From the NCBI GenBank assembly GCA_007376405.1, contig VMGD01000001.1, positions 2,891 to 66,890 of the forward strand: 64,000 nucleotides of DNA, read 5' to 3'. This DNA comes from Microgenomates group bacterium Gr01-1014_7 (GTDB lineage Bacteria > Patescibacteriota > Microgenomatia > Daviesbacterales > UBA10151). The notes beneath the pieces are model-generated. The model made no database searches. It saw only the letters and a list, made by a program, of their open reading frames with translations, and was not told where the DNA came from. Below, piece by piece: positions 47,261 through 64,000 of this stretch. Each line of letters opens with the position of its first letter. The stretch's first letter is position 1. Position numbers and translations under genes: made by a program.

Positions 47261-48382
47261 TCATGACCGAGTAATCTTTTCTATAAGTGTTAGGCTTTTT
47301 TTTACGGATTTTTCCCAGCTAAATTTTTTACTCCATTTATAAGCATTCTTGCTTAATTTATCTAAATTTTCTTCGTTAGATAAGGTTTTCTTAATCAAAT
47401 CAGCCAATTCAACATTATTCCTATTTTTACAAAGTAATCCGGTAATACCATCCTTTATAGAATCTCTAAGGCCTGGCACATTAAATGCGAGAGTGGGTGT
47501 AGCTACACTAGCTGCCTCAATAACCACCAATCCCCACCCTTCTCTTACAGAAGTATTTATCAGCAAATGTGCTTTTGACAGTAATTCAAATTTCCTATTC
47601 TCTTCAACAAAACCATAAAAAGCAACTCGTTGTTCAATATTTAGTTCCTTGCATAACAATTTTAGTCTTTTTAAATAATTTTCATCACCCTTCCCAACTA
47701 CCCAAAACTTCCATTTCGTTTTTGTAGATAGTATTGAAAATACTTCTAGAGCATCTTCAATTCCTTTATCTCTACTCAAGGCTCCCAAAAAAATAAGAGT
47801 TGGTTCTTTTTCTTTTTCAAATCTTTTTAAACCTCTTGGTATGTTTGTTCCATTGTGAATAATAGTAATATTTTTATCCGGTATGCCCCACCTAATTAAG
47901 TCATCTTTTGTAGATTTTGAAACAGTCATAAAAGGAACATATTTGTAAAATAAAAAAATTAGCGGCTCAAATAATCTGCCGAAAGTGCTGGGGAAAAAAT
48001 TGTAGGGTTTTGGCCAGGGGTTTAAACTCCATACCTCTTTTGCCACCTCATGTATAAAAGCCAATTTTTTGCCTCGAACGTAGAATGGAATAAAAAAAGG
48101 AATACCGTGAAATTGATCAATAACTAAATCAAACTTTTCGTGAGGCTTAAATAAGTACCATAGAAACGCCTCCCACTGTACTCCAAACATTTGTCTCCCG
48201 TACCTTTTTATATTTATTCCATCTATTACTTCTTCTCTTTTTGCATCAGGAAAGTAAGAAGTAAATATAGTCACTCTATGATCCATCTTTACCCAACCTT
48301 TGGCATGTTCATGGGTAGATTTTTCTGCCCCACCTGCATGGGGATGGCCAGGTCCTCTCCAAGATAGAATTAATATATTCAT
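47261..48382 (-). CDS. GT4-family glycosyltransferase
   Basis: EGWGLVVIEAASVATPTLAFNVPGLRD (E-x7-E motif). Confidence 0.8.
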   Translation of the reverse strand: MNILILSWRGPGHPHAGGAEKSTHEHAKGWVKMDHRVTIFTSYFPDAKREEVIDGINIKRYGRQMFGVQWEAFLWYLFKPHEKFDLVIDQFHGIPFFIPFYVRGKKLAFIHEVAKEVWSLNPWPKPYNFFPSTFGRLFEPLIFLFYKYVPFMTVSKSTKDDLIRWGIPDKNITIIHNGTNIPRGLKRFEKEKEPTLIFLGALSRDKGIEDALEVFSILSTKTKWKFWVVGKGDENYLKRLKLLCKELNIEQRVAFYGFVEENRKFELLSKAHLLINTSVREGWGLVVIEAASVATPTLAFNVPGLRDSIKDGITGLLCKNRNNVELADLIKKTLSNEENLDKLSKNAYKWSKKFSWEKSVKKSLTLIEKITRS

Positions 48383-48897
48383 ACTGAATCCATGGCTAAG
48401 ATTAAAGTACCATTTTTCTTTAAAACTCTTCTAATTTCTTGTAGAGATTTTAAAGGGTTTTCCACATGTTCTATGGTTTCATAGTTTAGTACGAAATCCA
48501 TACTGTTACTTCTAAAAGGTAAATCTTCAGCAGAAGCTACTCTAAAATTTATATGAGGATAAATTTTCTTAGCATACGATATAGCTTTATCAAATACATC
48601 TATTCCAAAATATTTAGCATTTGGATAAGACTTAGCAATTTCAGAAATCATATATCCACTGGCACAACCAACATCTAAGCAATTACTAAGCTTTATTCTT
48701 TTTATAATTCTTTTAGCAAGTTTAATCTTATGATAATGCCAAATCCATCTAAATATATTTGTTTTAACGCCTTTTTGATAATAATTTACTGGTACTTTAT
48801 CCCAAAGATTGTATAACCTATGATCTAAAAATTTTGGTTGATTTTCAGAATTAGTTTCCCTTTGTTGACTTGCATTTACTGAAGAGAAGATGTTCAT
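48379..48897 (-). CDS. Class I SAM-dependent methyltransferase
   Basis: CLDVGCASGYMISEIAK, FDVFDKAI, MDFVLNYETIEH, LKKNGTLILA. Confidence 0.75.
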   Translation of the reverse strand: MNIFSSVNASQQRETNSENQPKFLDHRLYNLWDKVPVNYYQKGVKTNIFRWIWHYHKIKLAKRIIKRIKLSNCLDVGCASGYMISEIAKSYPNAKYFGIDVFDKAISYAKKIYPHINFRVASAEDLPFRSNSMDFVLNYETIEHVENPLKSLQEIRRVLKKNGTLILAMDSV

Positions 48898-50621
48898 ATC
48901 TTTGGGAAACTAATTATCCAGTTTTTGCAGAATTCTTTTCTATTCATTTTCTCCATGTAAAAAATATTTGTATTCATTACTCTTATATATCTTGCTAAAT
49001 CTACATCATTGCATACTAAATCATTATTTATTACAAAAATGGTTCCTGCATCAGCAAGTGACACGATACCTTTTTTACCATTTTCTTCTCTATTACACTT
49101 ATTCCTTGCATCGGTAATTAATATCTCTCCTTTTGTAAAATCTACTCCTTTGGGACAATCACTAGAAAATGTGGCCTTGTTTAAAGAAAAATCCTTTGCT
49201 TTTATTTTTTGATTTGCTTTTAGGATATCTTGTTTAGTTTCATACATTCCAGAATAAAATAGATATTGCTCAAACACTACCTTTGAAGATTCATTAGTAA
49301 CCACATAAATCTTCTGAATACTGGCAATATCCTGACTTTGCTTTACATAATTTGCTATAATTCTTTCTCCTAAAAACCAGCGATCTGCGGAATAAATTGG
49401 ATACCTGAAAAAATAAAGATGAATAAAATATAAAACCCCTACTATATATAAACTAATTAAGAAAATAAATATAAGTTTTTTAAATTTTCCTATTTGGGTC
49501 AAAGACCACATTCCTACTCCTGAGAGTATTACCATATAAGGAAACATTGAAAAAGCTCTAATAGCATAGGTTTTTTCTACCTTATCTATAGCCGAAACTG
49601 ATGGAGCTAAAGCAATAATTGACATAGTCAACCAAAAAACACCTCTTTTTAAAGTAAACAGAGTGATTAATCCAATAATTATTAAGGGGAAATCTAAATA
49701 ATGAAATTGTCCATAATCCCATGTTGAGTAAACAGATACTGTCTCTCCACGGGCAAAAAGAGCTGTAGTATCAAAAGCACCTAAATAAACATCAATCACT
49801 CTCCTTAATGTTATGGTCAGCTTATTTATAAAAATAGGCAAGGCGAAATTTGGTATTGCTTGCCTTCTTTCCAAATTGACTATATCAGATGCCCAACTTT
49901 GATCAAAAATTAATAGTTCTCCCGTCCTTGCCCCAGCAGGCTGATGATGAATAGTCAAGGTGTATAAGGAAAAAGTTAAAAAGGTAAGTAAACCCATAGC
50001 AAGGTATGGTAATTTGGATTGTTTACTTTTATCAGTTTTAAATTTATATACTAGAAGAATTATAATTAAAGGTAAAAAAAATAATTTAGCGCCCAGATAG
50101 CTTAGAAAGCCTAAAATAAAAAAGGGGAAAGAAAAAAGTATTCTCCAGGAATTTTTACTTAAAAGAAGATATGTTCCCAAAAGAAAAAAGAAGGAGGCAA
50201 AAGTCGTCTCCAACGCATTCCTACTGGTATGAATACTCCAAGGGTTTACTGCCATAAAAAGGGCGGCAAAATTGGCAATTTTCTCATTTAATAGATTTTT
50301 AGTAATTAAATATACAAGTAGAACAGATAAAACGCCAAAGATAGCATATATTATTCTTGAATTAAATTGAGAGAGAGGATTTGGACCCACCCAAAACATA
50401 ATGACATAAGATGGAATCTCAGATATCACTACATCAAAATCCTTTTCTCCCCAAGAAAACAAAGCTGAAGCAGTTAAGGGAATATTTTTACCCGTGTGAT
50501 ATAAAGATTTAGCATTCATGACATAATTCAACTCATCATAAATCATAGATGGTGGAAAAATATCTAAAAACCACACCCGCAGAAATAGAGCAATACTAAG
50601 AATTAAAAATAATACTTTCAT
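48894..50621 (-). CDS. GT39/ArnT/PMT-like GT-C glycosyltransferase (polyprenyl-phosphate-sugar dependent)
   Basis: N-terminal loop with the YDELNYVMNAKS acidic DE motif after TM1, about 11 TM segments, and a C-terminal soluble domain. Confidence 0.65.
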   Translation of the reverse strand: MKVLFLILSIALFLRVWFLDIFPPSMIYDELNYVMNAKSLYHTGKNIPLTASALFSWGEKDFDVVISEIPSYVIMFWVGPNPLSQFNSRIIYAIFGVLSVLLVYLITKNLLNEKIANFAALFMAVNPWSIHTSRNALETTFASFFFLLGTYLLLSKNSWRILFSFPFFILGFLSYLGAKLFFLPLIIILLVYKFKTDKSKQSKLPYLAMGLLTFLTFSLYTLTIHHQPAGARTGELLIFDQSWASDIVNLERRQAIPNFALPIFINKLTITLRRVIDVYLGAFDTTALFARGETVSVYSTWDYGQFHYLDFPLIIIGLITLFTLKRGVFWLTMSIIALAPSVSAIDKVEKTYAIRAFSMFPYMVILSGVGMWSLTQIGKFKKLIFIFLISLYIVGVLYFIHLYFFRYPIYSADRWFLGERIIANYVKQSQDIASIQKIYVVTNESSKVVFEQYLFYSGMYETKQDILKANQKIKAKDFSLNKATFSSDCPKGVDFTKGEILITDARNKCNREENGKKGIVSLADAGTIFVINNDLVCNDVDLARYIRVMNTNIFYMEKMNRKEFCKNWIISFPKI

Positions 50622-50668
50622 TACAACTTTTGATTTTACCTTTATTTAGATTACATTAACTCTAAAGT

Positions 50669-51451
50669 TTAATTCCGGTCAAACCTCCACTTTCTTTTAT
50701 TCTCATCAGCATAATAATTTAATATCCTTAATCTGTAAAAAACTGCAAGTGTATCTTTAAGCATAGCAAGCACTGTTCTTACAAATCTCTGGCTTGTAAA
50801 AGTAGACGTTCCTCCAAATCTTAGATTAATATCAATAGGTGCCTCAAAAATTCTTTTAAATCCCAGATAATTTGCAACAGCAAGCATCTCAACATCAAAA
50901 GCAAACCGCTTAACCAGTAAACGGGGAAGTACTTTTTCCAACACTGCTCTTCTAAAAAATTTCATACCTACTTGGGTATCCCTAATCTTTAAACCGAAAA
51001 GCACTAAAACAAGAAATTGATACCCCATTGAAAGAATTCTTCTTTGCCAAGGATAATCAACTTTTGAAACCGGGTGTCTTTTAGAACCTACAATAATATC
51101 GGCGTTATACCATTCAAAATGTTCCAGAAGAAGAGATAGTCCGTTAGGATTTAGATCCATCCCTGCATCAACAAAACCAACAATATCCCCTCTACTTTCT
51201 GCCATCCCAAACCGCACAGCATACCCCTTACCTTTATTCGTTTCATATCCTATGACTTTTACATTTGAGTATTTTTTTGCAAACCTTTGAGCATTAATAA
51301 ACGTATTATCTATTTTTCCGTCTACAACACATATCAGTTCAGTTGGATAACGCAGTTTATCCAAAACCTCTTTTATTCTCTTAAGATCCCTAACTATCGC
51401 CCCCTCTTGCCTGAAGGCGGGAACTATTACTGATATTAAACTTATTTCCAT
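50669..51451 (-). CDS. GT2-family polyprenyl-phosphate glycosyltransferase-like
   Basis: ISVIVPAFRQEGAI...ICVVDGKIDNT...VDAGMDLNPN. Confidence 0.7.
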   Translation of the reverse strand: MEISLISVIVPAFRQEGAIVRDLKRIKEVLDKLRYPTELICVVDGKIDNTFINAQRFAKKYSNVKVIGYETNKGKGYAVRFGMAESRGDIVGFVDAGMDLNPNGLSLLLEHFEWYNADIIVGSKRHPVSKVDYPWQRRILSMGYQFLVLVLFGLKIRDTQVGMKFFRRAVLEKVLPRLLVKRFAFDVEMLAVANYLGFKRIFEAPIDINLRFGGTSTFTSQRFVRTVLAMLKDTLAVFYRLRILNYYADENKRKWRFDRN

Positions 51452-52727
51452 AGGTAGAGTATATAAGCAGAGACACTAGTAGTAAAGCAGTTACAATAAT
51501 TGATACTAGGATGACATCAAATAAACTTTGGTGATAAAACCAAATGGCTGCAATTTGAGCTATAGCAGCCAGTAAAGGTAAGACCACAACTTTAGTCCGG
51601 TTCAGCGATAAATGAAAATTAATTAGCAGTGAAGAAAACGTAAAAAGAGTCATAAAAATACCAAACCATACCAATAAATTGGCTGATTCCAAATAGGCAG
51701 ACCCATAAAGCAAGTTTACGGCAAATCTGGGAAACAATAAATAAACTATTAAAATACTTAAAGATATTGCCGCTGTTGCAAAGAAGCTGTAAAGAAAGAT
51801 CTTTTTATACCTTAGTCCTTTGGCATGTCTTTGAGAAACAATGGGAAACATGACCGATCCAATCGGACCGGCTCCAAAGAAAATAATCTTTCCCAGCGTA
51901 GATAAAGAGGCATAAAGACCAGCGTCATGAGAAGAGAAGAAATGTTTTACTAAGATTAAATCTGAAGAGTAAAGCGAAGTTACAGCTAAAGATTGTACCA
52001 ATATCTGAATAGTAAAAAGCAGCATCGGTTTTAGATTTAATGAAAAATTGGATTCCTCTTTAGTTTGAATCTTGAGATAATGGTTGGTAAATAACCAACC
52101 CAAAAGTGCCGCAATCACAAAAGCCAACATTGCTCCGCCGACTCGAAAGCCCAAATAGACCAAAGCCACACTAACAAGAAGTTTTGCCCCATTTTCTAAA
52201 AAGACAGATAACATCATCTCTTTAAATTTCAACAGGCCTTGCAGTATGGATCTATTTAAAAGTGTTTGGATGGCGAAAAGGGAAGCTAAGGCAATCAAAA
52301 AAAGATAGCTCAATTTATTAATATGTAAAAAGGAGGCTAAAGCCGGTGATATAACAATTATGAAAATAAAAAAGATCAATGAAATCTTAAAGACTTTTGT
52401 TTTTAGCCAATGGATTAAAATTGCTACCTCCCTCTCATTTTTTGCGCCCGATACATATTTAATAATGACCAAACTCAAAGATCCAGGGATAATTCCCAAA
52501 AGCCCCATCAAAGAAATTAAAGCTGCCAGTTCCCCATAAAAGGCAGGACCTAACATCCGTCCTATCACCAAATGATATATATAATTCAGGAGGTTAATGC
52601 TATTGCTTCCTAAAACCATTATGGCGCTACCTGAAAAAAGCGGGTGTTTAATGAAATTGAAAATTTTCTTCATGCTACCCAATATCCTCTCAAAAACAGA
52701 GTTGTTTCGGCAAATAAAATTAGGCAT
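51390..52727 (-). CDS. Wzx-like polysaccharide/oligosaccharide flippase (MOP superfamily)
   Basis: About 12-14 TM segments and an N-terminal KHPLFSGSAIMVLGSNSINLLNYIYHLVIGRMLGPAFYGELAAL, typical of polysaccharide-biosynthesis-protein (Wzx) N-termini. The probable start is the internal Met near 52673. Confidence 0.6.
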   Translation of the reverse strand: MPNFICRNNSVFERILGSMKKIFNFIKHPLFSGSAIMVLGSNSINLLNYIYHLVIGRMLGPAFYGELAALISLMGLLGIIPGSLSLVIIKYVSGAKNEREVAILIHWLKTKVFKISLIFFIFIIVISPALASFLHINKLSYLFLIALASLFAIQTLLNRSILQGLLKFKEMMLSVFLENGAKLLVSVALVYLGFRVGGAMLAFVIAALLGWLFTNHYLKIQTKEESNFSLNLKPMLLFTIQILVQSLAVTSLYSSDLILVKHFFSSHDAGLYASLSTLGKIIFFGAGPIGSVMFPIVSQRHAKGLRYKKIFLYSFFATAAISLSILIVYLLFPRFAVNLLYGSAYLESANLLVWFGIFMTLFTFSSLLINFHLSLNRTKVVVLPLLAAIAQIAAIWFYHQSLFDVILVSIIVTALLLVSLLIYSTYGNKFNISNSSRLQARGGDS

Positions 52728-53830
52728 GAAATAAACAAAAAAATTACTCTTAAAAACTTTGGAAGGCTGTTGACAAAGATAGCCAATGCTAAAAAACTTG
52801 GGAATAAAACTATTATATATCTGGGCAGAGAAGAAAAACTGCCTTGAACTGTTGTTAATAAAAACCCAAATATTGCATACAAAAGATAAGATAGCCTAAT
52901 TTTTTTAAAATAGCCGTAAATGGGCAATAAGAAAAATGTTATTCCCACCATAATCTCTAAAATAATTGTTTGATAAATAGGATTTTGCATGTCAACAGTC
53001 AGAAGCATCTTCAGATAACGAAAATAGACTTGTGGCAATAAAATAATACCCGACTGGTGCTGTTCCCCCACTTCTTTTTGTAAATTATAGAAAGCTAAAG
53101 GATCTCCGAAGTTTAAATATTGGTAAATCATATAAATTCCCAGTCCAGTAGGTATCATAAAAAGCCAAATGATTTTCTTAAAAGGTACTTTTTGTTGCCA
53201 TGCTTCAAACAGTAATGCTGGAAGGAGTATAATCCCAAAAACTCTGGTGGATGATGCAATGGCCCCTATTAAGGAGGCTTCAATCCATTTTCCTTTTCTT
53301 GCAAGGTAAAAAGATGAGACTGATAGCAATAAAAATAATGACTCACTATATAAAGCTCCGAAATAAAATGATGTTGGAAAACAAAGAAGCACTATGAGAG
53401 TTAAGAAACTAATTTTTTTTGAATAATCTAAATTAAGTAATTCAAAAAGTAATATTAAAGCAATAAAGAAAGAGGTATTTGAAATTATTAAACCCACAAT
53501 GGTTGAAGATAATATAGAGATTAAGAGATTGGAAGAAAAAGGGCTTGCAAAAAAATTAATTATCATAGGAAAAATTGGGAAAAAAGCTTGTTCCAACTCG
53601 TTATAACCAAAAATAGCTATTGATAGAAAATGTTCTCCATCAAAATTTGCCCAAGCAAATAGTTCAGGTGAGAGCTGAAAATTTATTGGCCCCCCGCCTA
53701 AATACCGGGATGTTGAAGCCAACGGAAAATTTAGAGCGATAAGAGAAAAAATAATTAATGCTGTTCTCCAAGATAAAAATAAGCCTATGATAATTTTTGT
53801 ATCAGTATTGATCTTGGAAAAAATCCTCAT
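52670..53830 (-). CDS. Polytopic membrane protein, PIG-V/Mannosyl_trans2-like GT-C candidate
   Basis: WANFDGEHFLSIAIFGY resembles the conserved W..WD..YF..IA block of the GPI mannosyltransferase-2-like family. Multi-TM. Confidence 0.4.
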   Translation of the reverse strand: MRIFSKINTDTKIIIGLFLSWRTALIIFSLIALNFPLASTSRYLGGGPINFQLSPELFAWANFDGEHFLSIAIFGYNELEQAFFPIFPMIINFFASPFSSNLLISILSSTIVGLIISNTSFFIALILLFELLNLDYSKKISFLTLIVLLCFPTSFYFGALYSESLFLLLSVSSFYLARKGKWIEASLIGAIASSTRVFGIILLPALLFEAWQQKVPFKKIIWLFMIPTGLGIYMIYQYLNFGDPLAFYNLQKEVGEQHQSGIILLPQVYFRYLKMLLTVDMQNPIYQTIILEIMVGITFFLLPIYGYFKKIRLSYLLYAIFGFLLTTVQGSFSSLPRYIIVLFPSFLALAIFVNSLPKFLRVIFLFISCLILFAETTLFLRGYWVA

Positions 53831-54891
53831 TTTATAACCTTCAAGTAAACTTTTTTTATCTCCTCAGCGAATTTTATCCAGGAAAATCTGGCTGCCTGTT
53901 TTAATCCCAACCGTGATAGCTTAGATTGTAGCGATTTATCGTACAATAGCTCTCTGGCAATCTTGACAAACTGGCTTACATTAGTTGGATCGAAATAAAC
54001 TGCGGCATCCCCTCCTACCTCTTTTAAACTACCCCTATTTGAAGAAATAACCGGTGTGCCGCAAGCAAAAGATTGCAAAATAGGCATACCAAAACCTTCA
54101 TATAATGAAGGTTGTACATATACAGTAGCCAAATTATAAAAGGCAATTAACTCTTTATCTTCCAAATTACCCGGCTTGATGATTTTTTGTTCAAGACTAT
54201 ATTCTTTGATAAGTTTATTAACCAGTTTTAAAGATTCAAGTTCGGGATGATCAATATTTTCAACATTTTTTAAAAAAACTCCTCCTACTAAAATCAGTTT
54301 AAGATTCTCTAATTCTTTGTATTCTAAAAGCTTTCTAAAACCATCAATCAAAAATGGCAGATTTTTCGTCCAATTGGCATCACCCACATATAATATATAT
54401 TGATCAGGCAGCTGATACTTTCTCTTAATATAAATTAAATCCCTATCCGGTAACACTTTAAACTGCCAATCGGCTGATAAATAGACAGCTGTAATTTTTG
54501 AACTATCAATCTTAAGATGTTTAATAATATCTAATTTTGATACATGTGAATCTGTCATAACAGCGCAGTTTGATAGTGCAATTTTTTGTAGAAAATGATT
54601 AAACTTACCCTTTATACCGACTGGGTAATAATCTGAAAAAATAAGCGGTATCACATCATGAATGGTAACTACAGTGGGAAAATTCTTCTTAATTGGCAAT
54701 GTGTGAAAAAAAAGGTCAAACCAGGGATAGTGAACCAGATCTACGTTTTTTAACTCATCCTGATTTCTAAACTTAATAATTTCAACTTCATTATCTTTTT
54801 CCAAAATATCTATTAAATTTTTCGTATAGTAACCTATACCTCTTGATTTATGAGCTGTTTCTAAAGGTAAAATGTTAATGCCTATCTTCAT
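53827..54891 (-). CDS. GT4-family glycosyltransferase
   Basis: EGFGMPILQSFACGTPVISSNRGSLKEV. Confidence 0.8.
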   Translation of the reverse strand: MKIGINILPLETAHKSRGIGYYTKNLIDILEKDNEVEIIKFRNQDELKNVDLVHYPWFDLFFHTLPIKKNFPTVVTIHDVIPLIFSDYYPVGIKGKFNHFLQKIALSNCAVMTDSHVSKLDIIKHLKIDSSKITAVYLSADWQFKVLPDRDLIYIKRKYQLPDQYILYVGDANWTKNLPFLIDGFRKLLEYKELENLKLILVGGVFLKNVENIDHPELESLKLVNKLIKEYSLEQKIIKPGNLEDKELIAFYNLATVYVQPSLYEGFGMPILQSFACGTPVISSNRGSLKEVGGDAAVYFDPTNVSQFVKIARELLYDKSLQSKLSRLGLKQAARFSWIKFAEEIKKVYLKVIK

Positions 54892-55658
54892 TTATCTTCT
54901 CCTTTATCAATCAATAATTTTATATAGGCAATAGGAAACCGCAGGGAAGAAAACAATGAAAAAACAAAACCGGGAAAACCATCGATAAAACCTTTGTGCC
55001 TGAAATAAGTCTTCACAAACCACCAAACGGGTTTTATAAAAAAATAATCTACTGATGTTATGAAACCTTTTTTAACTCCATTTTGCTTCATTTGTGTGGC
55101 AATCAAATCAGTATATGTATTTAATCTTTGAATATAGATTGCAAAATTTTTATCCCTTAGATGCAAAAGATCATTTTTTAGAAATCCCACTTTACCTTCA
55201 ACTACAGCTTGCTCATGAACATCTTTAGCCGGAAGCCTTCCCTTGCCTATTTTATAAAGCCGCAAGGTATAATCAGGATACTGACCGCCCTTTTTAAGAA
55301 ATCTTCCTAGAAAGAAATTTTTCCGGGGAATCCAATAGCCATTTATTTCGGATTTCCTTGAAACAATTTTTTTTATCTCTTGGGATAACTCTCTGGTAAC
55401 TACTTCATCTGCATCCAACTGCAGAATCCAATCTCCTTTTGCCGCATCAATTGCTTTATTTTTATTAATATGAAATACGGCAGGATTATCTGCCGATATT
55501 ACCCTAGCTCCAAAACTTTTTGCAATCTGCACTGTTTTATCTTTGGATCCTCCATCAACTATAACAATTTCCCAAGCAAAATCAGCAACCGACTCAAGAC
55601 ATTGTCTTAAATTTTCTTCTTCGTTATATACGGCCAATACTACCGAAATCTTTGTCAT
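54888..55658 (-). CDS. GT2-family glycosyltransferase (polyprenyl-phosphate sugar synthase-like)
   Basis: ISVVLAVYNEEENLRQCL...IVDGGSKDKT...LQLDADEV. Confidence 0.75.
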   Translation of the reverse strand: MTKISVVLAVYNEEENLRQCLESVADFAWEIVIVDGGSKDKTVQIAKSFGARVISADNPAVFHINKNKAIDAAKGDWILQLDADEVVTRELSQEIKKIVSRKSEINGYWIPRKNFFLGRFLKKGGQYPDYTLRLYKIGKGRLPAKDVHEQAVVEGKVGFLKNDLLHLRDKNFAIYIQRLNTYTDLIATQMKQNGVKKGFITSVDYFFIKPVWWFVKTYFRHKGFIDGFPGFVFSLFSSLRFPIAYIKLLIDKGEDK

Positions 55659-57298
55659 TGTGCACTCACTAAATAGAAATCGTTACCTCCATCAGGGAAG
55701 TGAATAATTCTTACTACATTAAACTTTGCTCGATATTTTAAACCATCATACTGACTGGGCGTAAGAACATATAATACACTGGGCAGAGGGGCGCTTTCAA
55801 TAGGATCCCAACCTCCAAAATAATACTTATCGAAGGATGAAACAGTATTATACTTATAACTCTTACTATCCAAACGATTGTATATTACAGTATTTCTAAA
55901 ATCCGGTAGAGGTTCTTTCAAATAAAAAAGGAAAAAGATGTACGGTTGTGATCTTTCTTCTGTTACGTAAATTGTATGATACCGTGGATGATCCTTGACA
56001 AACTCTACAATTTGCTTCATACCATATTGCCAATCAGTTGGTTCCTTTTTCGGGTAAATATTATAATAATAGTTAAGGTAGGAATATACTTCTATGCTCA
56101 GAATAAGCAGAATAATAAACAGTGCTAATAATTTTATCTTATTCCTAGTAAGTTTCAGAATCTTAGTTGCTCCAAAAGCTGAGAGAAGATGCATACTACC
56201 CATCATAAAAACTGCCCTAGTAGCACTAGGCGCACCTCCAACTAAGCTGGCGGGAACAGGAGATAGTAGTAACCAGGCTAATAAAATTAGAGTAACCCTT
56301 GATCTTAATTTTAATAAATATAAAAGTCCTACTAAAATAAAAAGGGCGTCGATTTTATAGAATTCTCCACTAGTCTTGACTGAATTTCTTGGACTCTGGT
56401 CTCCTGTCAAAAATAAGTATTGAGGAGTAAAATGGCTTATGTAGTTTTTTAAAAAAATTTCTCCAATCGCAAGATTAGAATTTTTTGTCATTTTGTAAAT
56501 GGTTGTTTTCTCGAAATCTTCAAGATTTAGTTGAGTTTGTTTAACTCTTGCTGTTCCTAAAAGCCTTGGTTCTATGAAAAGTAGTGATATAAAGACAAGA
56601 AAAATAAGTAAACCGCTATAAAAATTCTTTGATAATTTTCTTAAGTCTTTAAAATAAAAAAAACAAAGCAGTAAAACTATTAAGGGAACTACAATCTTTG
56701 AGGAATGATAGGATAAAATGCTAAGACCAAAACTTAAGAATGATATATTTATTAACCAACCTTTTTTTTGTAAAGCTAAATAGAACATCAGTAGACCTAA
56801 CATAAAGAAAAAAAGTGCGAAATTGACTTCCCATAATCCCCTGGAAAATTGTAAGTGATATGGTGAAACTGCCAAAAATAATGCGGAAATTAAGGCTGTT
56901 AGATCGTTCTTAAAAAGAATGCGAGTCAGGTAAAAAATTACTAAAACACTAAGTACACCAATTATTGCCCCGGGAAGTCTGGTTGTAAAATCCGATAAGC
57001 CAAATATTTTTACAAACGGTACAGTAAGATATATATGAATTGGGTGTTTATCATCTTTAAATGAAGTAAATACCAGTGGAAATGCTTTACCCCATTCATC
57101 TTTTCCCCAATTAGCTATTGCATATGCGTTATATCCTGCTGCGGCTTCATCCCAATTAACAGAGGGTGGTACTTGATCTAATTTGTATATCCTCAAAAAG
57201 GCAGCCAATAAAATAATTAAGAATAAAAAGATCTTAACTTTAATTTTCATTGTATACCCAGAAGGCTGTTTTCTCATCCAGGAATTTAATTTCTGCAT
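55655..57298 (-). CDS. GT39/ArnT-like GT-C glycosyltransferase, paralog
   Basis: NWDEAAAGYNAYAIANWGKDEWGKAFPLVFTSF...HPIHIY (DE motif loop) and multi-TM. The probable start is the internal Met near 57250. Confidence 0.7.
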   Translation of the reverse strand: MQKLNSWMRKQPSGYTMKIKVKIFLFLIILLAAFLRIYKLDQVPPSVNWDEAAAGYNAYAIANWGKDEWGKAFPLVFTSFKDDKHPIHIYLTVPFVKIFGLSDFTTRLPGAIIGVLSVLVIFYLTRILFKNDLTALISALFLAVSPYHLQFSRGLWEVNFALFFFMLGLLMFYLALQKKGWLINISFLSFGLSILSYHSSKIVVPLIVLLLCFFYFKDLRKLSKNFYSGLLIFLVFISLLFIEPRLLGTARVKQTQLNLEDFEKTTIYKMTKNSNLAIGEIFLKNYISHFTPQYLFLTGDQSPRNSVKTSGEFYKIDALFILVGLLYLLKLRSRVTLILLAWLLLSPVPASLVGGAPSATRAVFMMGSMHLLSAFGATKILKLTRNKIKLLALFIILLILSIEVYSYLNYYYNIYPKKEPTDWQYGMKQIVEFVKDHPRYHTIYVTEERSQPYIFFLFYLKEPLPDFRNTVIYNRLDSKSYKYNTVSSFDKYYFGGWDPIESAPLPSVLYVLTPSQYDGLKYRAKFNVVRIIHFPDGGNDFYLVSAQ

Positions 57299-58850
57299 AT
57301 GGACTTATATTATCCAGCTTGTCTAAATTAGTTGCAAAGATTAAAGTTTTTTTAGCTTTTAAATCTTCTTTATTAATTTTCCTAAATTCAAACTTATCAA
57401 ACTTTGAAACTGCTGAGAATCCACGGTTATTTACAGGGTTATACTTAACTTCATTTCGAAATTTTTCCGGATGATAGCGCAGATAATATAATGCAAAAAT
57501 ATACGGCTGAGCATATTCATCAGAAATAATAATCTTATCAAATTTATTAAACTGATCTTTATAATCCAAAAATAACCCTTTATATCCATACTGCCAATCT
57601 TGTGAGGATTCTCTATTATATTGACTAATGAAATTTTGAAAAAAATAAACAAAAAAGAGTAAGTAAATAAATATAATTAGAAATGGAGCTTTTTTAAAAT
57701 GTTTTGAAATAGATGTTGCTCCAACTGCCATTAGTATAGATAAAAACGGAACCACGGTTAGCGATCTTAAAGCATGGGGCGCTTCCTTAAAAAGGATTGC
57801 AGGAATTGGTCCTAAAAACAGAAATATAATGGGTAGATAAAGCAATAATTTCCTTTGCTTTTTAATGATAAAAATTCCCAGTAGAGCTAAAAATATATCA
57901 GTCAGGAATAGTTGACCGAATCCCTGTGGGTGATTTCTGGAATTTGAATCCCCCTCTAGTAAAAGAAATGAGGGGCTAAAATGAACAAAATAATTAGTTA
58001 GGATATTAGTAAAATTTTTGTTCCAATCAGTTGATTTACTTCGATCAAAAATTAGTTGCAGGTGAGGTTTACCTGAAAGATCATAGACTTGTTGAATGGT
58101 AGGTAACAAAGTAAAAGCTTGAACCCTACCAAAGCCTGCATCATAAATAAGTAATCTAACAATGGGAGTTAAACTTATTATAAAAATAATCAGTGCGCTA
58201 AGAATTAGAAAATAATTCTTTATCTTTATCGGCTGAATATGCAAAAAAAGAAGTAGAATTAAAGCTATTGGGGCAAGTATCCGAAAACTATTATAGCTAT
58301 AAATGCTAAGAATCAAACTTAAAGTTGCGAAAATTATCAAGTACTTTTTCTTTATTGCTAAAATCATAAAGTAAACCCCTAAAATAAAAAACATTAAACC
58401 TGCGGAGACCTCATACCCAGCCCTACTAAAAATAAATAACCAAGAGGAACAAGTAAGGAAAAAGGCGCTAAATAATGCTAATTTTGTATCCCTAAATAAT
58501 TCTTTCGCCAATAAATAGGTAATAAGTACAGTCATTAATGAAAATAGGACCGCAGGTAACCTAATCGAAAATTCATTAAGACCAAAAAGCTTAATAAAGA
58601 TTGCAGTGGTATAGATATAAACAGGTAGTTTGAACTCTCCAAAGGCTCTAAAATGAATGGGCAAAAATTCTCCCCACTCATCTTTCCCTGTTTGGGAAAT
58701 AGAGTAAGCGTTATAACCAATAGATGCTTCATCCCAATACAAAGAAGGAGGAATCTCGTTAATTTTGTAAAGACGAGTAAGCAGAAAAAATAAGCATATT
58801 AGAATTAAAAAAAAATTAGGTGAGAGTAATTTTGATATAGACGTAGCCAT
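57240..58850 (-). CDS. GT39/ArnT-like GT-C glycosyltransferase, paralog (tandem with 55655-57298)
   Basis: YWDEASIGYNAYSISQTGKDEWGEFLPIHFRAFGEFKLPVYIY. Confidence 0.7.
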   Translation of the reverse strand: MATSISKLLSPNFFLILICLFFLLTRLYKINEIPPSLYWDEASIGYNAYSISQTGKDEWGEFLPIHFRAFGEFKLPVYIYTTAIFIKLFGLNEFSIRLPAVLFSLMTVLITYLLAKELFRDTKLALFSAFFLTCSSWLFIFSRAGYEVSAGLMFFILGVYFMILAIKKKYLIIFATLSLILSIYSYNSFRILAPIALILLLFLHIQPIKIKNYFLILSALIIFIISLTPIVRLLIYDAGFGRVQAFTLLPTIQQVYDLSGKPHLQLIFDRSKSTDWNKNFTNILTNYFVHFSPSFLLLEGDSNSRNHPQGFGQLFLTDIFLALLGIFIIKKQRKLLLYLPIIFLFLGPIPAILFKEAPHALRSLTVVPFLSILMAVGATSISKHFKKAPFLIIFIYLLFFVYFFQNFISQYNRESSQDWQYGYKGLFLDYKDQFNKFDKIIISDEYAQPYIFALYYLRYHPEKFRNEVKYNPVNNRGFSAVSKFDKFEFRKINKEDLKAKKTLIFATNLDKLDNISPYAEIKFLDEKTAFWVYNEN

Positions 58851-58872
58851 ATTATAACCATATAATCATATC

Positions 58873-59640
58873 ATGCAACTCATGCAACATCTAAGTTTAC
58901 TATCCATTTTACCAAACTTCTTCACCCTAGGCTTATCAATATATCTATTTAGAAGATATCTACCTTTCAAAACAAGTGTGTTCAGAAGCTTCCTAATAAT
59001 TTCTTTATTATTAATTCCACTTTTTTATTATTCACCAAATTACTTTATTTCCTTTTTACCATTAATCTCAGTAGGGATTTTAGCTCTTTACAAACATTTT
59101 CCAAATAGTCTTGTATTAATAGCTTGGGCTATCTTTTTATTTTTAGGCAATCTTTATTCCGGCGAGGTTATCAAATACCCTTTTGATATTCAACATTCGC
59201 AACTTATTTTTAATTCTCCGGAAGTTAATTATAATTTGAATAGGCATCAGGAAGACGCATTGTTTATTCCCTACAAAGCTCGTTTAATCGTATACTCACA
59301 ACTCGTTTATGTTTACGCCCTTTTAACAAACTTTTTTGATTTCCTAAACTTAAAAAACCTTTATGATATTTTATTACTCGCTAATTTGTATCCAATATCT
59401 ATAGGTCTTTACAAAATTTTTACACAAAAGCAGGAATTGAAAAGTATTTTTTTAGTTTCTTTTCTTATTACCATGTTAACTTCCGGTATTGATAGGTCAC
59501 CTGATAAGTTTCAATCGCTTTATTTATTAACACCAGTTTTCATATATCTAATAATTTTAGGTGCACAAAGTATAAATAAAAAGTTATATTTTGCTCTTTG
59601 GATTTTAAGCATTTTTATTTTGATTAGTCCCAAAATATGA
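58873..59640 (+). CDS. Hypothetical integral membrane protein (about 8 TM)
   Basis: Hydrophobic throughout. An ATGA overlap links it to the downstream GT39-like gene. Confidence 0.5.
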   Translation: MQLMQHLSLLSILPNFFTLGLSIYLFRRYLPFKTSVFRSFLIISLLLIPLFYYSPNYFISFLPLISVGILALYKHFPNSLVLIAWAIFLFLGNLYSGEVIKYPFDIQHSQLIFNSPEVNYNLNRHQEDALFIPYKARLIVYSQLVYVYALLTNFFDFLNLKNLYDILLLANLYPISIGLYKIFTQKQELKSIFLVSFLITMLTSGIDRSPDKFQSLYLLTPVFIYLIILGAQSINKKLYFALWILSIFILISPKI

Positions 59641-61217
59641 AATTTAAGATACTGGTAGTTTTAGTTGCAGTTCTAACCGTATTGACCAGATTTATAAATT
59701 TGGATTCAAACCCTCCACATTTATCAAATGATGAAATATCAATTGCCTATGATGCTTATTCTGTTTCAAAAACCTTAAGGGATGAGCATAATCACTTTTT
59801 ACCTTTATCCTTTCAATCGCATAGCACCTATAAAGCCCCCCTAACCATTTATCTATCAATCCCCACAACTATTATATTTGGTAATAGCGAAATAGCTGCC
59901 AGAGCTCCTTCAGCTTTCTTGGGCAGCTTAACTGTCTTAATTTTAGGACTTTTGGTTTTTGAACTAACGAGAAATAAATACCTTAGCCTACTTACCGCAC
60001 TTATTCTTGCTATCTCTCCTATGCATATTTTAACTTCACACATGGCTTATGAAGCTAATATTGGTTTATTCTTTTTTGTCCTGGGGATATATTTATTTTT
60101 CTTATCCTTAAGAAAAAATAGCAATCTTATAACCTTCAGTTCTTTCTTTGCATTTACCTTATCAGTATATAGCTATCATACGGAATGGGTTTTCACCCCG
60201 TTTATTATTATTTTGTTGTATATGCTTAATTTTAAGTTTATATCTAAAAAACCCAAGTATTATATTGGGGCATTAATATTTTTAGTACTTATTACACCCT
60301 TGGTTCTAGATTTCCTAAGTAATTTACAGACTACTACCAGAGCAGGTACTGAAAATCTACTACGGGAACCCTCACTGGCAAAGAAACTCGAAGATGGTAA
60401 TTTCTTTTATTGGCAAAAGATATCTTTTATTCTACAAGCTTTTTTAGAAAAATATTCATCCTACTTTAATCCTTCCTATATTTTCTTTACAGGCTATAAC
60501 TTACTTCCTAAGGGAGACCCTTTCCAACTTGGAGTATTCTTATTTATTTTTCTCCCGTTCTTCTGTATTGGAATTTTTAGTCTACGCTCATTTTTCAAAG
60601 GCAACTCAAAGTTTATTTATATACTTTTAATAACTTCCCCAATAACTGCATCATTAACTAGCGGACCTCAAAGCACTTCCAGGAACCTAGTTTCTTTAAT
60701 TCCTATTTCAATTGTTTGTGCCGTTGGGTTGTTTATTTTTTGGAAAACTGCCGGAAAAATTTGGAAAAAAGCGTTTTTAATAATTTTTGCTGGTACCTTT
60801 TTATATTTTTTAGCTATTTTTTATTATCATTTTCCCAAAGATTCAGGAGAAGGATTTCAATATGGCTATAAACAAATTGCATTATTTATTAAACCAAGAT
60901 ATCAAAATTTAAACCTTATAATTATTGATCCCAGATTTGGACCAGCGAATATGTATTCAGGACTTCCGCATTTATATATCCCCTACTATACAAATCTTGA
61001 TCCTAATAAACTATTAGAAAGTAAAAGAGACAAAGCAGGAACCTTTTTTGATAAATATCAAATCAGAGATATTAATTGGGATAAAGAAGAATTAGATGAA
61101 GGTAATCTTTATATAGTACCTGTCTCTAATGAACCCGATCAAAAATTACAACTTAAAAGAATTTATACCATTACTTTACCCAATTTTAAGCCGGCATTTT
61201 ATCTTTATATCCTCTAA
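59637..61217 (+). CDS. GT39/ArnT-like GT-C glycosyltransferase, paralog
   Basis: SNDEISIAYDAYSVSKTLRDEHNHFLPLSFQSHSTYKAPLTIY. Confidence 0.7.
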   Translation: MKFKILVVLVAVLTVLTRFINLDSNPPHLSNDEISIAYDAYSVSKTLRDEHNHFLPLSFQSHSTYKAPLTIYLSIPTTIIFGNSEIAARAPSAFLGSLTVLILGLLVFELTRNKYLSLLTALILAISPMHILTSHMAYEANIGLFFFVLGIYLFFLSLRKNSNLITFSSFFAFTLSVYSYHTEWVFTPFIIILLYMLNFKFISKKPKYYIGALIFLVLITPLVLDFLSNLQTTTRAGTENLLREPSLAKKLEDGNFFYWQKISFILQAFLEKYSSYFNPSYIFFTGYNLLPKGDPFQLGVFLFIFLPFFCIGIFSLRSFFKGNSKFIYILLITSPITASLTSGPQSTSRNLVSLIPISIVCAVGLFIFWKTAGKIWKKAFLIIFAGTFLYFLAIFYYHFPKDSGEGFQYGYKQIALFIKPRYQNLNLIIIDPRFGPANMYSGLPHLYIPYYTNLDPNKLLESKRDKAGTFFDKYQIRDINWDKEELDEGNLYIVPVSNEPDQKLQLKRIYTITLPNFKPAFYLYIL

Positions 61218-62869
61218 GGAGTCACTTCTATAATATCAAAAGCTCTCTTACCATCAAGAAAATCAACAGATAAAAGTCTTGGAATCTCCTTTGGAAAATC
61301 TTCCGTCTTACCAATAAACAGCAGTTTCTTTCCCGGATTTTGTTTAACAATATCTGCAAATTGAGTACCTTCGTCTCCAAGATCAGGGAAGTAGAATTTA
61401 TCAAACCGCAAAACCCTAACCCAATCGTGAGTCTCAAACCTGACCAGATTTGGATTCGTTTGGTATTTGGAAGGATCATAATTTAGGAAAAACAGCGTAA
61501 ACATGTGAGGTTCACCATAGGTTCTGCTGAATACAATCTCATCATAGTCATTCCTATGCTTACCAATGTAATCTAGTGCTTGTTTGTACCCATATTGCCA
61601 GTCCCTGGAATAAGTTTTGGGGTAAACATTGTAATATTCATTTAGGTAATAACTAATGCTTACAGCAATTATAATTACCAGTAATGCGCCTACAGAAATT
61701 TTTGCCACTGCTTTCCATTTCTTAATCCATCCAAATGATATATAAAACCCAAAGGCGCAAACCAATTGGTAAAAAGGTGCAGCAATCAAAGTCCTTAACG
61801 CATGAGGGATACTGTCATTGGTAACTGAAACCGGGATAAAGGAAAGCAAAAGCCACGATAAAAGTAATCCCTTAAACCGATGTTTAAGGTAAAAAAGTGC
61901 CACTAGCCCAATAATTAAGAATGGAGCTTGAAAGTAATAAAGCTCTCCGATGTTTTGGACATGATGTTGTTTATGTGGGGCTCCGGAAATAAATAAAAAT
62001 TGCGGGGTAAAATGCGCAAGATAATTTCTCGCGAAATAAAAGCCGACATAAGTAATTTTATTATGCACTAATCTTGGGAGCGGCTGAGGAAGCCTTGAGA
62101 ATCCCCTATTTTCGTTTATTCTGGGGATTAAGCCCAGGTCATCGGTTATGCTTACCAATTTATACCTGGCACTTCTTTCTCCGCTAAAAAGATAGGGTGC
62201 AAGTGGCAGTAAAATAATAGTAAAAACTACTATTGAAATTACTACAATTTTTCTGAATTTAACCAGACTTTTTCTGTATAATAAAAAAATAACCAGTAAA
62301 AGCAGCGGTGTGAATATCCTGGCTGAATTATAAGTGAATACCGATAATCCAAAAGGGATCATTGAAATAACAAACCACTTCTTTGTGAAAAAACCTTTGA
62401 CAAGAAACGAAATCCCAAGTATTACCCATAATGTGGCCAAGGACGATTCAAATGAAGCCCGAGTAAGCTGTATATGCCATGGAGAAACAGCCAGTAAAAA
62501 TGAAGAAATTAAGCCAACCAGATTACTTTGAAAAAGGGCTCTTCCCAAAAAAAACATAGCCAAAACAGTCAGTGTTCCATAAATTACAGGGGTAATTCTA
62601 ACTCCCAGCTCATTTAGACCAAACAAATATATTCCGGGGATACTAAGATATATTTGAACCGGCAACTTATATTCTCCATACGCTTTAAAGTGTATTGGGA
62701 AGCTTTGATTCCATTCATCTTTCCCGGTTTTCAAAATTGAATATGCATTATATGCAATCGAAACTTCATCCCAGTTTAGGGAGGGCGGAATTTCTTTAAC
62801 TTTGTAAAATCTCAGTACAAAGCCCAAGACTAAGATTAAAAATAAGATAACAGGAATAATTTTTCTCAT
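61214..62869 (-). CDS. GT39/ArnT-like GT-C glycosyltransferase, paralog
   Basis: NWDEVSIAYNAYSILKTGKDEWNQSFPIHFKAYGEYKLPVQIY. Confidence 0.7.
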   Translation of the reverse strand: MRKIIPVILFLILVLGFVLRFYKVKEIPPSLNWDEVSIAYNAYSILKTGKDEWNQSFPIHFKAYGEYKLPVQIYLSIPGIYLFGLNELGVRITPVIYGTLTVLAMFFLGRALFQSNLVGLISSFLLAVSPWHIQLTRASFESSLATLWVILGISFLVKGFFTKKWFVISMIPFGLSVFTYNSARIFTPLLLLVIFLLYRKSLVKFRKIVVISIVVFTIILLPLAPYLFSGERSARYKLVSITDDLGLIPRINENRGFSRLPQPLPRLVHNKITYVGFYFARNYLAHFTPQFLFISGAPHKQHHVQNIGELYYFQAPFLIIGLVALFYLKHRFKGLLLSWLLLSFIPVSVTNDSIPHALRTLIAAPFYQLVCAFGFYISFGWIKKWKAVAKISVGALLVIIIAVSISYYLNEYYNVYPKTYSRDWQYGYKQALDYIGKHRNDYDEIVFSRTYGEPHMFTLFFLNYDPSKYQTNPNLVRFETHDWVRVLRFDKFYFPDLGDEGTQFADIVKQNPGKKLLFIGKTEDFPKEIPRLLSVDFLDGKRAFDIIEVTP

Positions 62870-63953: not shown

Positions 63954-64000
63954 CTAATAATTAAATTTGTTTTTTAACAACTCTTCATCAATGTTGTTAT

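Follow-up and report, generated by a model that had tools for sequence, protein, structure and literature searches.

We analysed a 64,000-nucleotide stretch of contig VMGD01000001.1 (assembly GCA_007376405.1; hereafter the window) from Microgenomates group bacterium Gr01-1014_7, a groundwater organism of the candidate phyla radiation (CPR, Patescibacteria) with a tiny genome, and focused on five paralogous genes for PMT_2-type glycosyltransferases (GTs) of the GT-C class that lie within 14 kb of one another. These genes, lettered in order of position, are PMT_A (48894-50621, minus strand; 575 aa), PMT_B (55655-57298, minus; 547 aa), PMT_C (57240-58850, minus; 536 aa), PMT_D (59637-61217, plus; 526 aa) and PMT_E (61214-62869, minus; 551 aa). 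A first-pass annotation of the DNA had proposed five GT39-like genes here, and we confirmed that all five open reading frames (ORFs) exist at these coordinates. Pfam scans, which took in nearly all window ORFs of at least 90 aa, placed all five above the PF13231 (PMT_2) gathering cut-off of 26.1 bits, with scores of 43.2 for PMT_A, 53.2 for PMT_B, 48.7 for PMT_C, 40.8 for PMT_D and 32.6 for PMT_E. The PF02366 (PMT) threshold of 22.7 bits was exceeded by PMT_B (26.8), PMT_D (39.8) and PMT_E (28.9); PMT_C remained below it at 21.9, and PMT_A had no match to this family. Neither an MIR (PF02815) nor a PMT_4TMC (PF16192) domain was found in any of the five paralogs at E<=0.01. Each paralog has 8-13 hydrophobic segments, and PMT_B is 100% identical to the NCBI entry 'Glycosyl transferase family 39 [Microgenomates group bacterium Gr01-1014_7]'.

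The Asp-Glu (DE) loop motif that had been attributed to all five proteins was observed in each of them: IYDELNYVMNAK in PMT_A, NWDEAAAGYNAYAI in PMT_B, YWDEASIGYNAY in PMT_C, SNDEISIAYDAY in PMT_D and, in loop 1, NWDEVSIAYNAY in PMT_E. Both stretches originally quoted as examples, NWDEAAAGYNAYAI in PMT_B and YWDEASIGYNAYSI in PMT_C, are present. Alignment of the five showed that the Asp-Glu pair is invariant, and the invariant residues, in PMT_B numbering, are D50-E51, R107, E157, R251 and R361. Among homologs from related loci, 172-173 of 179 retain the Asp-Glu, together with conserved Arg and Glu positions. Inactivity through loss of the catalytic Asp/Glu is ruled out by the conservation of this pair and of the other charged positions. 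The proposed gene arrangement was also borne out, with PMT_B and PMT_C overlapping by 59 nt on their longest ORFs and PMT_D and PMT_E converging with an overlap of 4 nt. The true start of PMT_B is probably Met17 at position 57250 (MKIKVK...), since the alignment with orthologs begins near this methionine; the overlap with PMT_C would then be 11 nt rather than 59.

To place the paralogs structurally, we used an AlphaFold2 model of PMT_B built with 54 sequences (pLDDT 92.2, pTM 0.92). Foldseek comparison with the PDB returned 32 matches at E<=1e-3, all of them GT-C enzymes (AglB, STT3, PglB, ArnT, ALG9/ALG12, Pmt4, Pmt1 and DPY19), and weaker matches to EmbB and AftA (E 1.6e-3 to 2e-2) as well as to PimE and GPI-MT-I. 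The best mutual TM-score was obtained with ArnT (5f15), at 0.56/0.56 and 14% identity, and protein mannosyltransferases (PMTs) reached 0.31-0.44. A sequence-profile search of the PDB with a profile of the paralogs gave ArnT (5ezm) alone, as a weak match (E 7.8e-5 over 160 residues). In the model, the Asp-Glu follows the first transmembrane (TM) helix, TM1 (H19-37), and lies where the first external-loop helix (H49-64) begins, which we take to be the canonical catalytic position of GT-C enzymes. Pfam, alignment and the model of PMT_B together support the assignment of the five paralogs as predicted GT-C enzymes of the ArnT/PMT type with an intact loop-1 Asp-Glu. Judged from their sequences, they are ArnT/PMT-like GT-Cs and are not demonstrable as GT39 protein mannosyltransferases.

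We scanned one genome per species for relatives of this region and obtained 40 loci with a relative of PMT_B, derived from Daviesbacteria, Woesebacteria, Microgenomates and other Patescibacteria. The gene order in these loci is PMT_E-PMT_C-PMT_B-GT2 (54888 type)-GT4-PIG-V-like-Wzx-GT2 (50669 type)-GT4 (47261 type), where genes other than PMT_A to PMT_E are named by their first coordinate in the window. PMT_C is directly followed by PMT_B in 30/30 loci, PMT_B by the GT2 in 35-37 of 39 and PMT_E by PMT_C in 23-25 of 34; the run from PMT_B through GT2 and GT4 to the PIG-V-like gene is found in 32 of 40. All nine genes stand in order in 15 of 40 loci, a count lowered by contig ends that cut many loci. 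It is not by chance that five PF13231-scoring ORFs with an invariant Asp-Glu lie within 14 kb, and about 40 other genomes have the same arrangement. The conserved block is present in about 40 Daviesbacteria, Woesebacteria and Microgenomates genomes, and the synteny across the 40 loci rules out a set of scattered housekeeping genes.

The partners of the PMT_2 genes in this block all lie on the minus strand. The 54888 gene (54888-55658) encodes a soluble GT2 of 256 aa (PF00535, 87.3 bits) with a GmaR/SunS/TIGR04283-like N-terminal domain, and it is followed by a predicted cytoplasmic GT4 of GT-B fold whose position is conserved (53827-54891; PF00534, 105 bits; NCBIfam matches generic and sub-threshold). 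The PIG-V-like protein and the Wzx-like flippase named in the first-pass annotation were both recovered above threshold. The former is a GT76-type GT-C membrane protein with about 9 hydrophobic segments (52670-53830; PF04188, 43.3 bits against a cut-off of 22.4), the match spanning just profile positions 52-214 of 443 and being weak or missing in some orthologs. The latter, of the MOP family and conserved in position, has about 12 hydrophobic segments (51390-52727; PF13440, 58.3 bits; PF01943, 55.7 bits); its longest ORF measures 445 aa and the called gene 427 aa. GT2_50669 (50669-51451; PF00535, 82.8 bits) is a DPM1/ArnC/PgfS-like enzyme of 260 aa without TM segments that is 52-84% identical across loci. 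Directly after it in most loci, with orthologs of 40-70% identity, comes the last gene of the core, a GT4 (47261-48382; PF00534, 134.6 bits). Another GT4 (62880-63953, minus; PF00534, 85.4 bits) lies upstream of PMT_E, and many loci have an ortholog of it (51-66% identity) on the upstream side of their PMT array. Neighbouring genes overlap by 4 nt or are separated by a few tens of nucleotides, and this close spacing indicates a minus-strand operon running from 58850 to about 46167.

Pairwise identity is 28-36% among PMT_B, PMT_C, PMT_D and PMT_E and 25-31% between PMT_A and the other four, whereas orthologs across loci share 44-79% (54-79% for PMT_E). A neighbour-joining tree of 179 PMT_2-like ORFs from the related loci gave each window paralog its own clade, and each clade contains at most one member per locus, except for one locus with two members in the PMT_B clade. 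The PMT_B clade is represented in 38 loci, PMT_E in 34, PMT_C in 30, a sixth paralog in 18, PMT_D in 3 and PMT_A in 2; single loci hold 1-7 PMT_2 genes (median 4) within about 21.6 kb. These separate clades, along with paralog identities of 25-36% against ortholog identities of 44-79%, indicate that the paralogs had diverged before these lineages radiated. The tandem duplicates of the first-pass annotation are therefore not duplicates in any recent sense. On the question of recent duplication versus ancient divergence, for which a phylogeny had been suggested, the tree supports ancient divergence, with two paralogs, PMT_A and PMT_D, having arrived with mobile modules.

PMT_A overlaps by 4 nt a gene for an S-adenosylmethionine (SAM)-dependent methyltransferase (48379-48897, minus; PF08241, 84.6 bits), and the two are inserted between GT2_50669 and the last GT4 of the core. 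They are absent at that site in the closest relatives, loci L006 and L025. The same-site module is present in a Daviesbacteria locus (L047, 10001-12372), where PMT_A is 86% identical, the pair 86-87%, and PMT_A, the methyltransferase and GT2_50669 taken together 85-87%, the other core genes being 50-74% identical. In L048 (10001-12412), on another contig of the assembly that carries the window sequence, a further PMT_A-like gene and the methyltransferase occur by themselves, outside any glycan locus and near an integrase gene. The PMT_A-type subfamily numbers 78 proteins, and its genes constantly carry a SAM methyltransferase directly downstream in the window, L047 and L048; the pair looks like a mobile two-gene module. 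PMT_D forms part of an inverted insert between PMT_E and PMT_C, its start overlapping by 4 nt a gene for a polytopic membrane protein of 255 aa (58873-59640, plus; about 6-8 hydrophobic segments) that has no Pfam or NCBIfam match and is found only where PMT_D is found. Among the related loci, only those of the closest relatives, L006 and L025, carry this insert, and L027 has a variant of it. Collectively, these comparisons indicate that the core is old and that the array expands as small GT-C modules are inserted into it.

The window contains eight GT2 genes with PF00535 matches, one of them sub-threshold (44247; 22.1 against 23.3 bits). For five of them, the alignment to Dol-P-Man synthase, AglJ, Dol-P-hexose transferase, PpgS, ArnC or PgfS extends through the entire catalytic domain. 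The closest to a solved Dol-P-Man synthase is a DPM1-type GT2 of 235 aa without TM segments (38006-38713, minus), which matches 5mlz DPMS over residues 10-225 (E 3.6e-22) and scores 134.8 bits against AglJ and 110 bits against Dol-P-hexose transferase in NCBIfam, both sub-threshold. GT2_28295 (28295-28999, plus; PF00535, 92.2 bits) is DPM1/ArnC-like, with alignments to ArnC, PgfS, AglJ and PpgS; GT2_40200 (40200-40934, plus) and, weakly, GT2_44247 (44247-45056, plus) align in the catalytic domain with DPM1-type enzymes, and GT2_50669 gives full-length sub-threshold alignments to PgfS, PpgS and ArnC, making it the candidate polyprenyl-phosphate-sugar synthase of the core. The remaining three are of other types, namely 54888 (GmaR/SunS-like; best PDB match GmaR, E 1.5e-18), 19854 (rhamnosyltransferase-like) and 27393 (TIGR04283-like). 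The earlier count of eight or nine GtrB/DPM1-type GT2s thus stands for the number of GT2 genes, eight, but only about five are DPM1/ArnC/GtrB-like. The C-terminal TM helices that had been assigned to these enzymes were not recovered, since, in a hydropathy scan, 19854 and 27393 were the sole GT2s with a C-terminal TM segment; neither of these is DPM1-like, and the five DPM1-like proteins had none. Human DPM1 and mycobacterial Ppm1 lack TM helices, while GtrB and ArnC carry them, and the missing helices need not exclude polyprenyl-phosphate-sugar synthase function. GT2_28295 ends 7 nt upstream of a gene of GT-C fold (29007-30662) and forms with it the cleanest pair of donor synthase and transferase in the window; GT2_50669 adjoins PMT_A in another pair-like arrangement, and a DPM1-like GT2 follows the sixth-paralog clade in 9 of 18 loci.

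The 29007 gene belongs to a second family of GT-C-fold paralogs, whose five polytopic members (551-659 aa; mutual identity 23-45%) lie at 24381-26360 (minus), 29007-30662 (plus; U_29007), 31642-33411 (plus), 33971-35767 (plus) and 41785-43707 (minus). A methyltransferase gene (33408-33974) is flanked by the 31642 and 33971 members. None of the five has a Pfam match even at E=5 or an NCBIfam match, and their public records are hypothetical proteins of Daviesbacteria and Patescibacteria, nothing more. The family has in common a near-invariant G-D-D-W directly after TM1. We modelled the 31642 protein with AlphaFold2 (pLDDT 90.8), and its top 22 PDB matches in Foldseek were STT3, AglB, PglB, ArnT or DPY19, with probability 1.0 and TM-scores of 0.29-0.48. 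Profile-profile comparison with the PMT_2 alignment gave a weak local link (probability 79%, E 1.7e-5, 88 columns). At E<=1e-3, the family comprises 1,256 representative clusters among 1.84 billion. Based on the model, these paralogs likely constitute an unclassified GT-C family.

By Pfam, the entire 64-kb window is composed of glycan genes. It includes, next to the eight GT2 genes, four GT4 genes, a GT10-like gene and an AftD-like GT-C of 740 aa with about 11 hydrophobic segments (17656-19878, plus; PF11847, 36.7 bits against a cut-off of 26). Twelve candidate GT-C enzymes are thereby encoded in 64 kb: the five PMT_2 proteins, the five Pfam-less proteins, the AftD-like and the PIG-V-like protein. 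The DNA past the window end was read from a 144,834-bp metagenome contig carrying the same sequence, and the locus continues there by at least 10 kb, to at least 74 kb and 14 or more GT-C-type enzymes. Directly past position 64000 (L045, 1-10000), genes for PMT_2 proteins of 542 and 613 aa, each retaining the Asp-Glu, bring the PMT_2 total to seven in about 22 kb. The same 10 kb encodes another two GT2s of 54888 type, along with three unannotated proteins of 386, 672 and >1162 aa that are apparently polytopic, judging by their N-terminal sequences.

We propose, with a probability of about 0.5 for the region's role and the following steps taken jointly, that a very large envelope-glycan locus has its core in this region and works as a split-topology assembly line. 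On the observed gene content, folds, motif conservation, orthology and synteny, we infer the topology of the steps, the type of donor and the order of action as follows. On the cytoplasmic face, soluble GT4 and GT2 enzymes (53827, 47261, 62880 and 54888) would use nucleotide sugars to make a short lipid-linked primer, which the Wzx-like 51390 protein would flip. The DPM1-like GT2s without TM segments, 50669 in the core and 28295, 38006, 40200 and 44247 elsewhere, would charge polyprenyl phosphate with single sugars. These polyprenyl-phosphate sugars would then serve a set of GT-Cs acting on the external face of the membrane, namely the PMT_E/PMT_C/PMT_B triad together with the PIG-V-like protein and two accessory enzymes, PMT_A and PMT_D. 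Each enzyme would add one specific sugar or linkage, and the loop-1 Asp-Glu would serve in catalysis or in activating the acceptor. Because PMT_E, PMT_C and PMT_B are ancient, non-redundant, fixed in order and represented by one ortholog per genome, they probably act at successive, distinct steps; PMT_A and PMT_D, each of which arrived with partner genes, probably add lineage-specific decorations. The sugars, the acceptor and the product are conditional on the same reading, the product being presumably a polysaccharide or lipoglycan rather than an O-glycosylated protein.

The conserved clustering of GT-Cs with DPM1-like GT2s, a flippase and cytoplasmic GTs makes extracytoplasmic glycosylation from lipid-linked monosaccharides, as the first-pass annotation had suggested, the most reasonable mechanism. 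Its further proposals of combinatorial decoration and of an S-layer or pilin acceptor were not directly supported. The conserved Wzx, GT4 and GT2 partners point to a lipid-linked glycan rather than to O-glycosylation of protein. Among the scanned window ORFs, no Pfam domain of a phosphoglycosyl transferase, Wzy, O-antigen ligase, LCP, oligosaccharyltransferase (OST) or GtrA was found; the lack of the first five in the window modestly favours a membrane-anchored product built by GT-Cs, although such genes could lie elsewhere in the genome. Several points weigh against the assembly line. Neither an initiating enzyme nor a final acceptor or ligase is in the window, no GtrA-type flippase for polyprenyl-phosphate sugars was found there, and no window GT2, GT4 or GT-C scores above a curated NCBIfam cut-off. 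The membrane association of the DPM1-like GT2s is assumed on the analogy of human DPM1 and mycobacterial Ppm1, and the matches to PMT-family Pfam models may leave room for direct protein O-glycosylation. The focal 14 kb, moreover, offer one DPM1-like GT2 (50669) for six GT-C genes, so that the repeated one-to-one pairs of donor synthase and transferase described initially are not seen there.

We weighed three other explanations. CPR bacteria are rich in pili and S-layers, and the PMT_2 paralogs might be protein O-glycosyltransferases, comparable to actinobacterial Pmt, eukaryotic PMT1/2/4 or TMTC-like enzymes, that each serve a different protein acceptor (S-layer protein, pilins, lipoproteins) from a polyprenyl-phosphate hexose supplied by the DPM1-like GT2. 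PF02366 is above threshold for PMT_B, PMT_D and PMT_E, the loop-1 Asp-Glu is a PMT hallmark, and Pmt4 and Pmt1-Pmt2 structures are among the fold matches; however, ArnT, AglB and STT3 outscore the PMTs in the fold search (TM-score 0.56 against 0.31-0.44), and MIR and PMT_4TMC are missing at the E-value cut-off given above. The fixed partners, Wzx, two GT4s, a GT2 and a PIG-V-like protein, fit a lipid-linked oligosaccharide, and the locus holds no candidate acceptor gene, so we regard this explanation as unlikely. We judge equally improbable, for the locus as a whole, an accessory three-component side-chain decoration (of the GtrABV, CsbB-GtcA-YfhO or GacI-GacL type) of a polymer made elsewhere, subject to phage- or host-driven antigenic variation. 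Such decoration fits PMT_A and PMT_D, whose modules are patchy and inserted at different points of the core, the PMT_A module being 86% identical where core genes are 50-74% identical and occurring also outside the locus. The number of extra upstream PMT_2 genes varies as well, with totals of 1 to 7 per locus, and GT2_28295/U_29007 and the DPM1-like GT2 behind the sixth-paralog clade (9/18 loci) resemble classic pairs. By contrast, PMT_E, PMT_C and PMT_B are conserved in order and present once per locus in 30-38 loci, unlike variable decorations, and the core lacks a GtrA-like flippase and has its own Wzx and cytoplasmic GTs.

In a third explanation, to which we give little credence, at least one of the PMT_2 paralogs would be a translocator like Agl23, moving polyprenyl-phosphate sugars or lipid-linked oligosaccharides in place of GtrA, of which no homolog was found in the window. 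PMT_B matches the NCBIfam model TIGR03663 'flippase activity-associated protein Agl23' (E 5e-12), and Haloarcula Agl23, a putative hexose-P-Dol flippase, moved M5GN2-PP-Dol in proteoliposomes (PMC11182771). The match, however, reaches 45.5 bits, far under the 126-bit cut-off, and covers the generic PMT_2 region alone; the catalytic-type Asp-Glu and other charged residues are kept in all paralogs, and the fold matches are transferases.

The proposed assembly line resembles several known systems without coinciding with any of them. Split-topology and lipid-linked-sugar pathways have been described (PMC11127046, PMC8035078, PMC3229680), and the mycobacterial assembly of phosphatidylinositol mannosides, lipomannan and lipoarabinomannan (PIM-LM-LAM) and of arabinogalactan has been reviewed (PMC3229680, PMC12041525). 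Our comparison set for mycobacteria and corynebacteria comprised PimA/PimB (GT4), Ppm1 (GT2) and PimE, MptA/B/C, EmbA/B/C and AftA-D (GT-C). As in PIM-LM-LAM assembly, GT4 steps would take place inside first and non-redundant GT-Cs would then act outside with polyprenyl-phosphate sugars; the DPM1-type GT2 lacks TM segments, an AftD-like GT-C is in the window, and EmbB, AftA and PimE are among the fold matches. The sequence relation, however, is no closer than fold or clan, and whereas mycobacterial LM/LAM genes are largely dispersed, PMT_2/ArnT-like and PIG-V-like genes here share a tight operon with Wzx. The eukaryotic ALG and glycosylphosphatidylinositol (GPI) pathways of the endoplasmic reticulum (ER), for which we considered Alg1/2/11 (GT4), Dpm1/Alg5 (GT2), Rft1 and the GT-Cs Alg3/9/12/6/8/10 and PIG-V/M/B/Z, likewise combine GT4s, a DPM1-type GT2, a MOP-like flippase and several GT-Cs including a PIG-V-family member, and ALG9 and ALG12 are among the fold matches. 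This likeness is an analogy of architecture alone; the window has no OST (STT3/PglB Pfam) and gives no evidence of N-glycosylation or GPI.

In three-component systems (GtrA/GtrB/GtrV; CsbB/GtcA/YfhO; GacI/GacL; ArnC/ArnT), a GT2 makes a polyprenyl-phosphate monosaccharide that a GT-C transfers outside (PMC11127046, PMC8035078), and the same donor logic would apply here. Unlike those systems, the locus has no GtrA/GtcA, its DPM1-like GT2s lack the two C-terminal TM helices of GtrB/ArnC, many GT-Cs stand against each GT2, and the central triad is a conserved core rather than an accessory. ArnT itself (GT83; 5ezm/5f15) is the sole solved structure found by sequence profile, gives the best TM-score and has the PMT_2 domain in common, yet identity is 12-14%; to our knowledge CPR bacteria lack lipid A, so that the acceptor must differ from that of ArnT. 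The neighbouring UDP-glucose dehydrogenase and epimerase/dehydratase were not identified as ArnA, ArnB or ArnD, their Pfam domains being generic and no aimed search having been made. With the GT39 protein O-mannosyltransferases (yeast Pmt1/2/4, M. tuberculosis Rv1002c), the paralogs share the loop-1 Asp-Glu, PF02366 in PMT_B, PMT_D and PMT_E, and the NCBI label; they differ from them in having neither MIR nor PMT_4TMC, in the sub-threshold PF02366 score of PMT_C and its absence from PMT_A, and in a polysaccharide-like operon context.

The wider window is rich in genes for sugar precursors, with many nucleoside diphosphate (NDP)-sugar epimerases and dehydratases, RmlC, RmlD, UDP-glucose dehydrogenase, a GDP-heptose-like set, two C-methyltransferases and split transketolase/E1-like genes. 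The GT10 (fucosyltransferase-like) gene (1013-2056, plus) adjoins a GDP-mannose 4,6-dehydratase; GT10 enzymes are uncommon among bacteria. An NTP-transferase, HAD phosphatase, GHMP kinase and SIS isomerase are grouped at 13710-17619 and resemble a GDP-glycero-manno-heptose-type pathway. Two sets of split E1/transketolase-like thiamine pyrophosphate (TPP) enzymes and two NDP-hexose C-methyltransferase-like genes (Methyltransf_13/14) are located at 3083-6873 (plus), 22725-23972 (minus) and 35768-37090 (minus), and these genes hint that the product may contain deoxysugars that are branched-chain or C-methylated. Amid the genes of GT-C fold lies an endonuclease/exonuclease/phosphatase-family protein (30643-31491, minus; Pfam 22.5 bits, below threshold) that might be a phosphodiesterase acting on a glycan or lipid. 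A small, signal-anchored, helical DUF5667 protein (43709-44236, minus) recurs at the downstream edge of the core in L003, L011 and L025; it has no Ser/Thr-rich tracts, and a role as glycosylation acceptor is unsupported. The window contains no tRNA or Rfam element, and its GC content is uniform (0.28-0.37), with no sign of a horizontally acquired island. Many of the TPA_asm metagenome-assembled genome records among L005-L044 are titled 'uncultured Gammaproteobacteria bacterium' but hold a Microgenomates-type operon with proteins 45-76% identical, and these organism names seem to be placeholders or mislabels. The size of related contigs, 0.74-1.13 Mb, points to a genome of roughly 1 Mb.

Our search of the literature on GT39, PMT and mannosyltransferases in CPR/Patescibacteria returned nothing relevant, such arrays not being described there, and GT39, PMT or mannosyltransferase families are not mentioned in Meheust et al. 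2019. What is already known is the automatic annotation of single genes as GT39 and the mechanism class. The operon that combines an ancient PMT_2 triad with PIG-V-like, Wzx, GT2 and GT4 genes, shared by some 40 or more Microgenomates species, appears undescribed in the searched literature, as do its growth by mobile GT-C modules and the companion Pfam-less GT-C family, which would be an addition to the GT-C fold.

In summary, CPR/Patescibacteria are minimal-genome episymbionts whose cell surface mediates host attachment and whose envelope glycans are barely known. That a nine-gene block is kept in about 40 species implies a product that is important for the lineage and not ornamental. The predicted commitment of at least 74 kb of a genome of about 1 Mb to one glycan locus with 14 or more GT-C-type enzymes is somewhat surprising in scale. 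For heterologous biochemistry, the locus also gives defined candidate pairs: GT2_50669 could be combined with PMT_A or PMT_B, and GT2_28295 with U_29007. More tentatively, and with more doubt than the assembly line itself, we suggest that in Microgenomates the main envelope glycoconjugate may be assembled for the most part on the external face of the membrane, by a dedicated set of a dozen or more GT-Cs. If true, this battery would consist of the ancient PMT_2 triad, a PIG-V-like and an AftD-like enzyme and an unclassified GT-C family, fed by DPM1-like synthases without TM segments. An 'ER-like' or 'mycobacterium-like' assembly line would then be a core trait of the class, taking up several percent of the roughly 1-Mb genome and diversifying through the insertion of mobile GT-C modules.

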